A stretch of 64,000 bases of DNA from Candidatus Protochlamydia phocaeensis (GCF_001545115.1 NZ_FCNU01000022.1:88544-152543), one strand, 5' to 3'; positions 35,739 to 41,768 are shown, counted from the stretch's first letter. Translations and numbers: made by a program. The notes: generated by a model from the letters alone, not told the origin.

Positions 35739-37085
35739 TTAAGAAGGAATTAATTTTTTAAAAAGCGCATCCCAATTAGATTGATGATGTTGTATCCAAT
35801 TGATATAGCCATCGGCTTTAAAACGGCTTTGTTCGAGGCCTAAATTGCCTGTAGCTCCTTGATGAATCTTTGAAAGAATATTCGTAACCGGATCTGCTTG
35901 AGAAACGGACTCTAAGCTTTGAGCCACTTGGCGATAAGCGTCGCGGAAAGGAACGCCATTCTTAGCGAGCTGCAAGACTTGGTCTGTGGCAAATAGCTCA
36001 GGAGTAAAAGCCTTTAGGCAAGCATCCTGATCGATTTGAATGCCTTCAAAGACTTTAAGGAATACATGCAATGAGGCGAGAGTCATATCAAATCCTTGCA
36101 TGAGCGGCCGCTTGGTTTCTTGAAAATCCCGATTGTAACCGGAAGGAAGCGATCGAATGATTTCAAGCGTTTGAAATAAAAGCCCTTGAACCGTTGCCGA
36201 TTTAGCCCGGATTAGCTCTAAGGGACAGGGATTGCGCTTTTGGGGCATTAAGCTGCTTCCCGGACAGAATTTTTCGGGCAATTTCAGGTAGCCGAATTCA
36301 GGCGCGCTAAAGATAATGATATCTGTAGCCAGTTTACTTAAATCATTCATGATTTGCGCCAAGGCATGTAGGACAATCGCCTCAAATTTGCCGCGGCTGT
36401 TATTGGCGTAAAGCACATTGTTTTGCACGCATCGAAATCCAAGCAGTTCAGCGCAATACTGGCGGTCGATGGGCAGCGAGACGCCATAACTGGCCGCTGA
36501 TCCCAGTGGACTTTGATTGATCAAGTCGAACGCGCTTTTAAGGAGTTCCCCATCGTCTAGCAAAGATTCAGTAAAAGCTCCGGCCCAAAGCCCTAAAGAA
36601 GAGGGCATGGCATGTTGAAAGTGCGTCCGGCCAGGAATAGGCACAGCATGGTTTTCATCGGCAAAGCGAATCAAGACTTGGCTAAGGGACGCAAGGGCTT
36701 CCATTGTTTGCAAAATCTGATCTCTCATATACAACCGCATATCAAGCAGGACTTGATCATTTCGCGATCGGGCAGTATGGAGCTTTTTACCTAAATTCCC
36801 AAGCGATTCCACCAAATAGTTTTCGACAGCCGTATGCACATCCTCGTCTGTCTGTTTAATTGTAAATAAGCCCTTTTTAGCAAGAGAAAGAATATGGCTG
36901 AGGCCTTGAAGCAGCTGATGGCATTCCTCGGTTGTCAAAATGCCAATTTTAGCCAACATGCTGGCATGGGCCATGCTTCCAAGGCAATCATAAGGCAAAA
37001 GGGCGATATCTAAAAGGGGATCATCCCCTGTCATAAAGGCTTCGACGGCTTCATCAAGTTGATATCCCTTATCCCACAATTTCAT
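35739..37085 (-). CDS. argH: Argininosuccinate lyase.
   Basis: The fumarate-lyase signature GSSLMPQKRNP is present. Length is 448 aa. Confidence 0.85.
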   Translation of the reverse strand: MKLWDKGYQLDEAVEAFMTGDDPLLDIALLPYDCLGSMAHASMLAKIGILTTEECHQLLQGLSHILSLAKKGLFTIKQTDEDVHTAVENYLVESLGNLGKKLHTARSRNDQVLLDMRLYMRDQILQTMEALASLSQVLIRFADENHAVPIPGRTHFQHAMPSSLGLWAGAFTESLLDDGELLKSAFDLINQSPLGSAASYGVSLPIDRQYCAELLGFRCVQNNVLYANNSRGKFEAIVLHALAQIMNDLSKLATDIIIFSAPEFGYLKLPEKFCPGSSLMPQKRNPCPLELIRAKSATVQGLLFQTLEIIRSLPSGYNRDFQETKRPLMQGFDMTLASLHVFLKVFEGIQIDQDACLKAFTPELFATDQVLQLAKNGVPFRDAYRQVAQSLESVSQADPVTNILSKIHQGATGNLGLEQSRFKADGYINWIQHHQSNWDALFKKLIPS

Positions 37086-38331
37086 AGCAGCCCTCCTTTG
37101 AGAGTTTTTCTTGTCGCTTGGCTAGGATTTCGCAGGGCAGGCCTTTAATTTTTGCTGCATGGGCGCACCATCTTTGATCAAACGAAGCGCTTTTGATGGA
37201 GCGAACGTCAGGAGCAAAAAGCGAATATTTCGACTCGCGATGCAGAATTTCAATATTTCCTTTATATAGCTTAGCGCGGATTTTTCCGCCTAAGACTTGT
37301 TGGGTTTGCGCGATAAAAGCATCCAATGCTTGTTTTAAGGGAGAAAACCATAGGCCATGATAAACTAAATAAGCCCATTGCGCATCGACGATTTTTTTAA
37401 ATTGAATTTCATCCTTGGTCAAGCATTGCTGCTCTAAATCGCGATGAAGCTTTAAGATTACATGGGCGGCAGGCGCTTCGTAAACCTCCCGGCTTTTCAA
37501 GTCCATGATGCCATCTTCAAACATGTCGATCAGGCCAATGCCCTGTTGGCCGGCTAGCTGATTAAGCGAGGCAATGATGCCATCCAAAGGAAGGCTTTCC
37601 CCATTAAGCGCAATGGGGATGCCTTGAGCAAATTCAATTTCCACAGCAATTCCTTCATCGGATGCGTGAGAAATAGGCCTTTTCCACATCCAAACATGAT
37701 CAGGGATAGGTTGATTGAGATCAACGGCTCCGGAGGCAATTGAACGGCACCATAGCGTTTTATCATCTCCTCCGACAATTTGCTCGCTGATGGGAATATT
37801 CCAGTGTTTGCAAAGGATTTGCTCTTCTAAACGCGTGAGATTGAAATCGCGTACAGGGACCAAAATATCCAATTCAGGCGCGAATAATTTGAAGACATTG
37901 TGCATGCGGTATTGATCGTTGCCTTTTCCTGTCGATCCTTCTAAAATGGCGTCGCATTCCAACTCTTTGGCTTTAAGGGCAACCAGTTTGGCGACAAGCT
38001 GCCTAGTCATAGAAGTGGAGACAGGATAGCCATTATAATCGGAATTTGCCTGAATCGCTTTTGACAGCCATTGCTGAGAAAATTCTTCCTTAGCATCGAT
38101 AATAAAAGGGGTGATGCCTAGAATGGCCGCCTTGGCATGCATGTCCTGCATTTCCTCTTCGCCCTGTCCGACATCAATGGTAATGGGAATGATCTCTTTG
38201 GCTTCATAAATATGGCGCAAGAGGGCGATGGCTAAGGAAGAATCCAATCCTCCGGAAAACGCAACTGCAACTTTTTGCCCTTTCGTCACGGGCGTTTGCT
38301 TAATTTTTTCTAAAATAGGCGCTAAAAACAT
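37069..38331 (-). CDS. Argininosuccinate synthase-like protein (divergent paralog).
   Basis: AFSGGLDSS, a PP-loop ATP pyrophosphatase motif, and GSTGKGNDQYRMH are present, but it is more divergent than the neighbouring copy. Confidence 0.65.
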   Translation of the reverse strand: MFLAPILEKIKQTPVTKGQKVAVAFSGGLDSSLAIALLRHIYEAKEIIPITIDVGQGEEEMQDMHAKAAILGITPFIIDAKEEFSQQWLSKAIQANSDYNGYPVSTSMTRQLVAKLVALKAKELECDAILEGSTGKGNDQYRMHNVFKLFAPELDILVPVRDFNLTRLEEQILCKHWNIPISEQIVGGDDKTLWCRSIASGAVDLNQPIPDHVWMWKRPISHASDEGIAVEIEFAQGIPIALNGESLPLDGIIASLNQLAGQQGIGLIDMFEDGIMDLKSREVYEAPAAHVILKLHRDLEQQCLTKDEIQFKKIVDAQWAYLVYHGLWFSPLKQALDAFIAQTQQVLGGKIRAKLYKGNIEILHRESKYSLFAPDVRSIKSASFDQRWCAHAAKIKGLPCEILAKRQEKLSKEGCYEIVG

Positions 38332-38334
38332 CTG

Positions 38335-40291: not shown

Positions 40292-40959
40292 CTCTTTTGA
40301 GTCATTTTTGCTAAAACCGACAGCAGGCTTGTCAGGATGAGGTAAAAAGCGGCTGCCGCTAAATAAATGGTCATAGGATCAAGCTCTCGGGCGACGATGT
40401 CTTTACTGATTTTCGTCAGCTCCGCCACTCCGATGACCATGAGGATACTTGTTTCCTTCACTAAGGCAGTAAGCTCGTTAGTTAAGCTGGGAAGCGTTAC
40501 ACGAATCATCTGAGGAAGGATGATTCCTTTTAATGTTTGCCAACGTGTGAGCCCTAGGACATAGGCGGCTTCCCATTGACCGTCCGGCAAGGCATTAATG
40601 CCGCCTCTGACTATTTCGGATACGTAGGCCGTTGAATTTAGCCCAAGGGCAATGACGCCTGCCAAGAAAGGAGAGAGCGATACCCCCACTAATTCCGGCA
40701 AGGCATAGTACGCGATCAGCACTTGGACAAAGAGAGGCGTGCCTCTAATGACCCAGACAAAGCTGCTTATTCCATAGGACAGCAGCGGCAGATTTAATTT
40801 GCGGCAATTCAGAATACCTAGCAAAATCCCGCCGCATAAGCCAATGCTAATGGAAACCAGGGATAATTGAATGGTCGTTAGCAAGCCCTTCAATAAAAGG
40901 GGAAGCGATTTAATTAAGAGAGACGAATCGTCTAACATTATTCCGCTCCTTTGAACCAT
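40279..40959 (-). CDS. Polar amino-acid ABC transporter permease (ArtQ/HisM-like).
   Basis: It has 5 TM segments and an EAA-like loop (ALGLNSTAYVSEIVRGG). Confidence 0.8.
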   Translation of the reverse strand: MVQRSGIMLDDSSLLIKSLPLLLKGLLTTIQLSLVSISIGLCGGILLGILNCRKLNLPLLSYGISSFVWVIRGTPLFVQVLIAYYALPELVGVSLSPFLAGVIALGLNSTAYVSEIVRGGINALPDGQWEAAYVLGLTRWQTLKGIILPQMIRVTLPSLTNELTALVKETSILMVIGVAELTKISKDIVARELDPMTIYLAAAAFYLILTSLLSVLAKMTQKRWSA

Positions 40960-41768
40960 TTGTCTTCGAGTTGCTTGAGCTCGCCCGAGGCTTTTAACTG
41001 CTGAATGACGTGCTCAACTTGCTGAGTTAGGGCCTCGTTGCCCTTTTTAATGCCAATTCCGAAGCCTAAAATGCTCTCTTCTTTAGGTAGAGGAATGGAT
41101 AGTACTCTGACTTCCGGATGTTTTTGCTTGAGGTATTCGGCTACATCCGGTTCGACGAGGTTGGCCAGCGATTTGCCGAATTTGACATCCATTAAAGGAG
41201 CGAGCGCGCCTTGAAAGGATTTGGTTTGAATCTGAGGATAATGGTTCATAAACGCTTCCGGAATAGCTCCTGATTCGACGCTTACGATTGCGTTGGGGAT
41301 AGCGGCTAAATCTTTGAGCGAATGAATGCCTGCTGGGATCTCATTCCAAAAAATCAAGCTTAGAGAATCGGCAGCTTCGCCATGATAGGGTACCATGTGG
41401 ATTTCTTTCAGTCGGCTTGGGGTGATATTCATGCCGCTGATAATGAGATCAATTTTTCCTTGTTTGAGGGAAAGGATCTCTCCTTCAAACTCCATATCTT
41501 TTACGACAAGTGTTTTTCCTAATTGGGCAGCAATTTTCTCAGCGATATCAAGGTCAAATCCGATGATATTGCCTTGTGCATCCATAAATTCAAACGGAGG
41601 GTATCCGCTTTGCAATCCCACGGTCAAGGTGTGTGTATTAGGCTGCTCTTTAGAGCAAGAGGATATCAGAGCCATGAGTCCAATTAGGATAAAAGTGGCG
41701 CTAAATAATATAAAATATTTTTTAAATTGAGTGGACATAAAAACTCCTTCATAAGACGTGTGCGTCAA
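40938..41768 (-). CDS. Polar amino-acid ABC transporter substrate-binding protein (family 3 SBP, ArtJ/GlnH-like).
   Basis: An N-terminal lipoprotein-like signal (ISSCS) is followed by an SBP_bac_3-type fold (GFDLDIAEKIA…). Confidence 0.75.
   Translation of the reverse strand: MTHTSYEGVFMSTQFKKYFILFSATFILIGLMALISSCSKEQPNTHTLTVGLQSGYPPFEFMDAQGNIIGFDLDIAEKIAAQLGKTLVVKDMEFEGEILSLKQGKIDLIISGMNITPSRLKEIHMVPYHGEAADSLSLIFWNEIPAGIHSLKDLAAIPNAIVSVESGAIPEAFMNHYPQIQTKSFQGALAPLMDVKFGKSLANLVEPDVAEYLKQKHPEVRVLSIPLPKEESILGFGIGIKKGNEALTQQVEHVIQQLKASGELKQLEDKWFKGAE

Follow-up and report, generated by a model that had tools for sequence, protein, structure and literature searches.

What does an amoeba-associated chlamydia do with an amino acid importer joined to the last two enzymes of arginine synthesis, and how is such a gene set controlled? 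The question is raised by a 64,000-nt stretch of Candidatus Protochlamydia phocaeensis DNA (hereafter the window), in which six minus-strand open reading frames (ORFs) at 35739-41768, the coordinates given in an original prediction made from the sequence, encode an ATP-binding cassette (ABC) importer, two ArgG paralogs, and ArgH. Comparison with related loci reveals that this six-gene module is conserved and that a mini-ORF ending in a run of Arg codons, likewise conserved, lies ahead of it. We think it probable that the operon serves arginine acquisition, in which a leader, an arginine (possibly citrulline) importer, two synthases, and a lyase would provide import induced by arginine starvation together with citrulline salvage, as a means of drawing arginine from the host.

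Organization of the operon

Genes were assigned by scoring with curated hidden Markov models (HMMs; NF and TIGR equivalogs with their cut-offs) and Pfam, and starts were corrected by reading the junctions. The operon comprises the following features, listed from its 5′ end.

40938-41738, minus strand: solute-binding protein (SBP) gene; Pfam SBP_bac_3, lipobox ISSC; longest ORF 40938-41768
40279-40938, minus strand: permease gene of the GlnP/ArtQ type; BPD_transp_1 and TIGR01726; longest ORF 40279-40959
39566-40282, minus strand: ABC ATPase gene of the GlnQ/ArtP type; ABC_tran, nearest models GlnQ and ArtP; longest ORF 39566-40291
38335-39558, minus strand: argG1, predicted canonical argininosuccinate synthase; NF001770, 555 bits; longest ORF 38335-39669
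37069-38331, minus strand: argG2, divergent ArgG-family ligase; NF001770, 346 vs cut-off 334; TIGR00032, 336 vs 268
35739-37085, minus strand: argH (ArgH2 clade), predicted argininosuccinate lyase; TIGR00838, 350 vs 279.5
35691-35720, minus strand: 13-bp stem-loop, likely operon terminator; -17.1 kcal/mol, z = -5.35

The SBP gene starts at ATG 41738, preceded by the ribosome-binding site (RBS) GAAGGAG. The permease start (ATG 40938) shares 1 nt with the SBP gene in the sequence TAATG, and the ATPase start (ATG 40282) overlaps the permease gene by 4 nt (ATGA). ArgG1 begins at ATG 39558 and not at 39669, 7 nt from the ATPase stop, so the initial 37 codons of its longest ORF fall outside the gene. 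A 3-nt gap separates the ArgG1 stop from the ArgG2 start, and the ArgG2 and ArgH genes overlap by 17 nt. The original prediction had described a six-gene minus-strand pack with overlaps or 3-7-nt gaps, transcribed as one unit; the overlaps (1, 4, and 17 nt) and gaps (7 and 3 nt) agree with the first part, and the tight layout is compatible with the second. The hairpin 3′ of argH, equaled in stability by 0 of 200 shuffles, is followed by a U/C-rich tail.

The HMM assignments bear out two ArgG paralogs and one ArgH, as had been proposed. Also as proposed, neither argF nor ornithine-pathway genes lie nearby: Pfam analysis of ORFs of at least 150 aa and tblastn with ArgJ/B/C/D, carbamoyltransferase, and ArgR detected no other arginine-pathway gene (argF/arcB, argB/C/D/J, carAB, arcA, or argR) in the 64-kb window.

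Conservation of the module

An ArgG2 profile was scanned against ~185,000 species genomes, one genome per species, and 80 loci were fetched; four exact look-ups and a search of metagenomes with the binding protein contributed further loci, all denoted here by L numbers. The six-gene order recurs in ten Parachlamydiales-like loci (L006, L008, L010, L011, L088, L166, L167, L168, L169, and L170), with proteins 55-80% identical to those of the window and flanking genes that are different in every locus. The shared order amid different flanks indicates a conserved arrangement and not a chance juxtaposition, and six genes that act as a self-contained unit.

Partial and rearranged versions accompany this order. 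L087 carries the importer, ArgG1, and ArgH without ArgG2; in L089, ArgG1 is divergent from the binding-protein gene; and the fetched segment of L091 holds the importer genes only. An ArgG1-ArgG2-ArgH triad accompanied by a polar-amino-acid ABC system, arranged in other gene orders, is present in L034 (Dependentiae), L015 and L045 (low-GC), and L007. Dependentiae are generally described as having almost no amino acid biosynthesis. In L170 (8580-11630), genes for malic enzyme and class II fumarase face argH convergently; the lyase releases fumarate as its by-product, and the proximity is possibly a coincidence.

These data bear on whether arginine is instead made de novo, in which case the other arg genes would lie elsewhere and the operon would simply combine an arginine importer with the two final steps, with no salvage of host citrulline. 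Our view is confined to 64 kb of the genome, and Woesearchaeota hold ArgG2 and ArgG1 inside a full argJBDC cluster, both of which favor de novo synthesis. We nevertheless judge it distinctly unlikely, given that no arg gene other than those of the operon is found within the 64 kb or in the flanks of the ten orthologous loci, that the same gene set occurs in a Dependentiae genome, and that Chlamydiaceae are without arginine biosynthesis genes (PMC2720952).

A leader mini-ORF with conserved Arg codons

The region between the operon and its upstream neighbor contains four features.

42094-42123, minus strand: candidate sigma-70-like promoter, TTGATC-18-TATACT, ~40 nt upstream of the leader ATG; from a consensus scan only
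41936-42055, minus strand: leader mini-ORF of 39 codons, MSDHPCLCIKPEMPYQAVSSSSFISVAILSSRRSFRRRR-stop; homologous Arg-run mini-ORFs in ~14 loci
41939-41950, minus strand: four Arg codons, CGC CGT CGG CGT, followed by TAA; other Arg codons in orthologs
41739-41935, minus strand: leader-to-SBP spacer of 197 nt; first 40 nt pyrimidine-rich and G-poor, with a structured segment ahead of the RBS

Promoter-like sites are no more numerous in the region than expected from shuffled sequence. The leader ORF, located ~200 nt upstream of the binding-protein gene, ends in RRSFRRRR-stop, and RRRR-stop occurs twice in the six frames of the window vs 0.24 times expected. The ending FRRRR-stop is shared by the window, L006, L008, L011, L086, L088, L090, and L166, with variants in L168 and L170 (SRRRR-stop), L010 (RVRR-stop), L087 (FRR-stop), and L169 (FRRS-stop). 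The L091 leader ends in RHHRRR-stop, encoded by AGG CAC CAT CGC AGG CGA, and L045 has a mini-ORF ending in SRRRRN-stop upstream of ArgG1. The codons themselves vary among orthologs, being CGC CGC CGG CGG TAG in L011 and CGC CGT CGT CGC in L166; such synonymous changes between loci point to selection on the codons rather than on a nucleotide motif. The N-terminal part of the leader is variable in sequence and length, and an AGG-containing motif (TAGGTTGCGAT or close to it) lies 5-8 nt ahead of the leader ATG in 12 loci. The loci that carry a leader are related to one another, and these counts are therefore not independent.

The mini-ORF is a short upstream ORF whose run of cognate codons is conserved as codons, as expected of an attenuator. 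This is the organization of the his, trp, and pheL attenuators, of tnaC, and of the Arg-codon sensors Salmonella speF orf34 (PMC6386406) and S. aureus rbfL (PMC13009471), which likewise place a short ORF with a codon run for the supplied amino acid upstream. It differs from known leader-peptide sensors in that the Arg run is at the extreme C terminus, a terminator/antiterminator pair is not demonstrable, and no Rfam family matches the leader region. The conservation of the leader Arg codons is a new observation; our literature search turned up no description of a leader of this kind, either ahead of an operon for arginine transport and synthesis or within Chlamydiae.

The same nucleotides could belong to an untranslated mini-ORF whose conserved GC-rich palindrome (CGCCGTCGGCG) and U-rich tract act as an RNA or DNA element. 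Conservation of the motif at the nucleotide level in several loci and the ability of the region to form small hairpins fit such an element. However, L091, L166, L168, L170, and L011 retain Arg codons despite nucleotide changes, with L091 using AGG and CGA, and in 12 loci the reading frame is uninterrupted from a start codon preceded by the conserved AGG motif, while the peptide varies in sequence and length. Furthermore, the upstream neighbor is divergently transcribed in several loci, so the element is not the terminator of that gene. An untranslated element thus appears decidedly improbable, and we favor a translated leader.

The RNA on either side of the Arg run is rich in pyrimidines and poor in G: over the preceding 48 nt and the following 40 nt, pyrimidines account for 71-78%, with 9% G before the run and 7% G after the stop. 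In E. coli tnaC, a pyrimidine-rich, G-poor tract lies right after the stop codon, and here too such a tract extends from the stop codon onward. Folding is on average stronger than in shuffles across the 64 nt ahead of the RBS (mean z of -1.13 over 14 related loci), and the fold of the single spacer sequence of the window is not significant (z = -1.55).

Two local elements were noted near the RBS. A short hairpin (41761-41780, minus strand) lies 10-25 nt before it, formed by GACGU...ACGUC in the window, L006, and L090, by GCGC...GCGC in L008, and by other sequences at the equivalent place in further loci including L168 and L170. A perfect 16-bp palindrome, TCAATTAATTAATTGA (41778-41793, minus strand), ~40 nt before the SBP start, was set aside, as it is not conserved in the aligned orthologous loci.

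ArgR as an alternative control

Three versions of the cluster, L034 (Dependentiae), L015, and L007, are without the leader, and all three carry argR inside the cluster.

L034, 6825-7427: argR and paired ARG boxes
L015, 8566-8728 and 12580-13038: argR and paired ARG boxes
L007, 12590-13069: argR

L034 and L015 each have two ARG-box matches, confined to the operon promoter region. The window has no ARG-box match at up to one mismatch, and no argR was detected in it when E. coli ArgR and B. subtilis AhrC served as tblastn queries. In otherwise equivalent clusters, argR thus takes the place of the leader, accompanied by ARG boxes in two of three cases. With a leader in some loci and argR in others, the gene set is tied to arginine sensing by two devices, a clear example of one module regulated in two ways. 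To our knowledge, leader-peptide control has been little described in Chlamydiae, which makes the conserved Arg-codon leader a directly testable regulatory element.

The importer and its substrate

The SBP is a predicted lipoprotein, with a signal peptide and an ISSC lipobox. Among solved structures, it is closest to the arginine-binding ArtJ proteins of C. trachomatis and C. pneumoniae (3DEL, 178.7 bits; 3QAX, 157.6; and 3N26, 152), and it scores below the cut-off of the lysine/arginine/ornithine-binding (LAO) subfamily (TIGR01096, 114.7 vs 256.35). Comparison with ArtJ, which the original prediction had proposed as a check, therefore does not single out the SBP as a novel citrulline binder. 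In C. trachomatis and C. pneumoniae, artJ and glnPQ are regarded as arginine importer genes, and Chlamydiaceae, being without arginine biosynthesis genes, require exogenous arginine (PMC2720952). The system of the window resembles the Chlamydia importer in its orthologous lipoprotein SBP and identical permease and ATPase types. It differs in that artJ, glnP, and glnQ are joined with argG1, argG2, and argH in one operon and in that, whereas the Chlamydia system is ArgR-controlled in some species, the window has an Arg-codon leader in place of argR and the ARG box.

The pocket was mapped by way of 14 positions at which the Salmonella LAO protein contacts its ligand. On this map, the Parachlamydiales SBPs retain the α-carboxylate Arg, the aromatic sandwich, and four acidic positions. 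The SBP of the window departs from ArtJ at six of the 14 positions (N11Q, S72N, Q117E, T120A, Y121I, and Q122P), with the domain-2 loop changing from VQTGTYQE to VESGAIPE. Q117E places a Glu where a treponemal homolog specific for arginine forms its bidentate salt bridge with the guanidinium group; that homolog, although strictly arginine specific, binds citrulline at 11 µM (10.1101/350942). Four acidic pocket positions, with the α-carboxylate Arg as the only arginine, disfavor aspartate, and the six departures from ArtJ leave arginine and citrulline inseparable. The SBP is the ortholog of Chlamydia ArtJ with a remodeled acidic pocket, compatible with arginine or citrulline, and aspartate is very unlikely to be the substrate of the importer.

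The original prediction had instead taken the ABC system as a plausible importer of host-derived citrulline (or aspartate) feeding ArgG and ArgH; in the strict form of this reading, the importer would be dedicated to that task, with arginine not a substrate. Four different gene orders place the triad together with a polar-amino-acid ABC system, the SBPs being only 25-35% identical to one another, which suggests functional coupling between importer and triad. The six pocket departures, including those in the domain-2 loop, and the ability of arginine binders to accept citrulline would also suit a citrulline importer. In contrast, all of these SBPs, including those beside the triad in L034 and L045, match arginine or glutamine/arginine binders best; the pocket gains a Glu at the guanidinium salt-bridge position; and L091 has the leader and ABC genes with no arg genes nearby. 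The acidic pocket makes the aspartate part of the proposal very unlikely, and a dedicated citrulline importer seems rather unlikely to us. An importer of arginine, and possibly of citrulline, remains our preferred assignment, as suggested by the ArtJ matches and the pocket map.

ArgG1 and ArgH

ArgG1 is predicted to be a canonical argininosuccinate synthase that converts citrulline, aspartate, and ATP to argininosuccinate. It passes both equivalog cut-offs (NF001770, 555.2 vs 334; TIGR00032, 487.1 vs 268.2) and scores 458-560 bits against solved ArgGs, including T. maritima 1VL2 (560) and the human enzyme 2NZ2 (511), with every motif retained. Its PP-loop and its citrulline and aspartate ligand residues align with those of human 2NZ2 and Thermus 1J1Z.

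ArgH passes TIGR00838 (349.7 vs 279.5), its C-terminal ~55 residues lying outside the model match, and retains the catalytic motifs SRND, T-H, and the GSSLMPQKRNP loop when aligned with δ-crystallin/argininosuccinate lyase. It is 50% identical to the lyase adjoining ArgG2 in a Brocadiia genome. In L087, an ArgH2-type lyase directly follows ArgG1 with no ArgG2 present, an adjacency suggesting that this lyase type serves a canonical ArgG. The lyase of the window most likely cleaves argininosuccinate.

The ArgG2 clade

ArgG2, which shares 33% identity with ArgG1 and is 100% identical to a Ca. Protochlamydia phocaeensis protein, represents a rare clade detected in 363 of the ~185,000 species genomes. 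It passes two ArgG equivalogs, NF001770 marginally (346.2 vs 334) and TIGR00032 more clearly (336.4 vs 268.2), and its top-scoring model is NF010392, at 382.8 under the model cut-off of 512. Against the nearest solved ArgGs it reaches only ~250 bits, below ArgG1 against every solved type-I ArgG. Within the clade, identity is 65-68% across Chlamydiae, Planctomycetota, Bacillota, Thermodesulfobacteriota, and archaea. Alignment of 120 homologs across phyla revealed GGDDKT[LM]WCRSIASG and FEDGIM.LKSRE to be invariant, and AFSGGLDSS and GSTGKGNDQYRMH, which comprise the PP-loop and the aspartate ligands T119, N123, D124, and R127 (human numbering, used throughout), to be invariant or nearly so. At the citrulline site, ArgG2 retains Y87, S92, N123, R127, S189, E270, and Y282, seven of the eight citrulline ligands of the human enzyme, in addition to all ATP and aspartate ligands. 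ArgG2 shares with canonical (Thermus/human-type) and E. coli-type ArgG the two ArgG domains, the PP-loop SGGLDSS, the aspartate motif TGKGNDQ, and most citrulline ligands. It differs from both as a clade of its own, with at least 65% identity across bacteria and archaea and invariant changes at S180, N184, E191, and R272.

The neighbors of ArgG2 were compared over 82 distinct loci, as follows.

ArgH-family gene adjacent to ArgG2: 53 of 82 loci, comprising 29 with the window-type lyase (50-57% identical) and 24 with another ArgH type
ArgG1 within the ArgG2 locus: 10 of 82
Binding protein and permease within the ArgG2 locus: 8 of 82

Clustering of the neighbors in ~80 ArgG2 loci identified ArgH as the sole conserved partner; other clusters (M48 peptidase, flavin adenine dinucleotide oxidase, radical SAM, and others) are lineage specific and functionally unrelated. 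An argJBDC, argC-argJ, or carbamoyltransferase-family (OTC/ATC) gene lies near ArgG2 in some loci.

We think that ArgG2 most likely performs the same reaction as ArgG1, being a second argininosuccinate synthase whose separate clade usually accompanies an ArgH-family lyase. Alternatively, ArgG2, perhaps with an ArgH2-type lyase, may use another ureido compound, such as an Nα-modified citrulline, and the two synthases would then be non-redundant. Such a substrate could account for the two invariant motifs, which swap conserved ArgG residues for smaller ones in the 120 homologs, for the consistently lower scores of ArgG2 than of ArgG1 against solved type-I ArgGs, and for the co-encoding of both synthases in Parachlamydiales, Dependentiae, two other low-GC genomes, and Woesearchaeota. 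Nonetheless, the ligand residues are almost fully retained, two ArgG equivalog cut-offs are passed, ArgG2 usually adjoins ArgH and has no other conserved partner, the E. coli-type ArgG is far more divergent (81 bits) yet a true ArgG, and L087 manages without ArgG2. On balance, a different substrate is unlikely. The clade is rare, extremely conserved, and uncharacterized, and whether it is an isozyme or has a new activity sets the annotation of ~360 species genomes.

Three further arrangements were observed. In the Woesearchaeota loci L003, L018, and L025 (~7800-18700), the order is ArgG2-argJ-argB-argD-argC-ArgG1, with an ArgH2-type lyase a few kb downstream; both synthase types are thus co-encoded in a DPANN archaeon. 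In the Parachlamydiales locus L009 (10001-14976), ArgG2 stands alone, without ArgG1, ArgH, or importer in the fetched 21 kb, and is followed by a YheO-like regulator, an aminotransferase, a pyridoxal-phosphate enzyme, and an ornithine cyclodeaminase-family gene. Two metagenome-assembled genomes each have two separate ArgG2 loci (L051/L063 and L077/L079), reflecting duplication or mixed bins.

Proposed mechanism of arginine acquisition

In the mechanism that we propose, one transcript would carry the leader ORF, the ArtJ/GlnP/GlnQ-type importer, ArgG1, ArgG2, and ArgH, and the enzymes would convert citrulline and aspartate to arginine and fumarate. When charged tRNA-Arg is scarce, the ribosome would stall at the four terminal Arg codons. 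The stalled ribosome would cover the adjacent pyrimidine-rich, G-poor RNA in a tnaC-like manner and mask a Rho loading site, and with this RNA covered, transcription or translation would proceed into the operon. With arginine in ample supply, the ribosome would terminate and depart, and expression would drop. The involvement of Rho is suggested by the base composition. A classical terminator/antiterminator model was dropped, as terminators in the spacers are not above shuffles; the small hairpins seen there are only partial.

Several observations weigh against this explanation. Terminator-like sites occur in 4 of 13 spacers vs 2.4 in shuffles, giving no consistent intrinsic terminator, and only ~8 of 13 loci can form a small hairpin whose loop holds the stop codon. 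ArgG2 invariantly replaces four residues that are conserved in solved ArgGs (S180 by G, N184 by T, E191 by A, and R272 by G) and may not use free citrulline. Moreover, two tandem synthases are kept, for which simple redundancy is no explanation. If these replacements were taken further, ArgG2 and the ArgH2-type lyase would form a distinct pair whose pocket changes (S180G, N184T, E191A, and R272G) suit a non-citrulline ureido substrate; the host-dependent lineages Parachlamydiales, Dependentiae, and Woesearchaeota would keep two non-redundant routes; and the operon would be under an undescribed tnaC-like, Rho-dependent arginine-sensing leader. We hold this combination to be highly unlikely.

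Arginine acquisition by import and citrulline salvage retains our preference. The arginine salvage put forward by the original prediction is plausible, supported by the Dependentiae gene set and by the arginine-sensing wiring, through either an Arg-codon leader or argR; aspartate import is the part that finds no support. A related gene set, the argR-argG-argH operon of Ca. Centrionella, a Legionellales symbiont, has been read by its authors as regenerating arginine from citrulline and aspartate (bioRxiv 10.64898/2026.04.11.717937). Both operons hold the last two arginine-synthesis steps only, whereas the operon described here has two synthase paralogs of different clades, a linked importer, and a leader peptide rather than ArgR. 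A literature search returned nothing relevant on argG/argH or citrulline in Chlamydiae, Protochlamydia, or Dependentiae. Each part of the system is of a known kind; what is new is that importer and salvage genes are fused, that two synthase clades stand in tandem, and that the Arg-codon leader alternates with ArgR. These features suggest that some environmental chlamydiae, as well as unrelated bacteria associated with amoebae, supplement an ArtJ importer with a two-step salvage route and control both by arginine sensing.

Genomic neighborhood

Immediately upstream of the leader region, 42219-42728 (minus strand) encodes a 169-aa predicted membrane protein of no Pfam family, with a weak, sub-threshold match to the type III secretion translocon protein SseD (E = 3e-4, 20 bits vs 266). 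Just upstream of the operon, 43232-50969 encodes an SNF2-family helicase of 947 aa and a divergent protein of 1496 aa that combines superfamily-1 helicase domains with a REase_MTES_1575 nuclease domain. At 95-5157 (plus strand), three consecutive ORFs resemble the pieces of a split enzyme of the glutamate-synthase type: Pfam gave no match for the first, the second matches Glu_synthase, and the third, of 874 aa, contains a GXGXG domain. A 291-aa protein with a eukaryote-type F-box domain is encoded at 52124-52999 (minus strand), and an F-box-like protein is also present in L009 (15070-16317).

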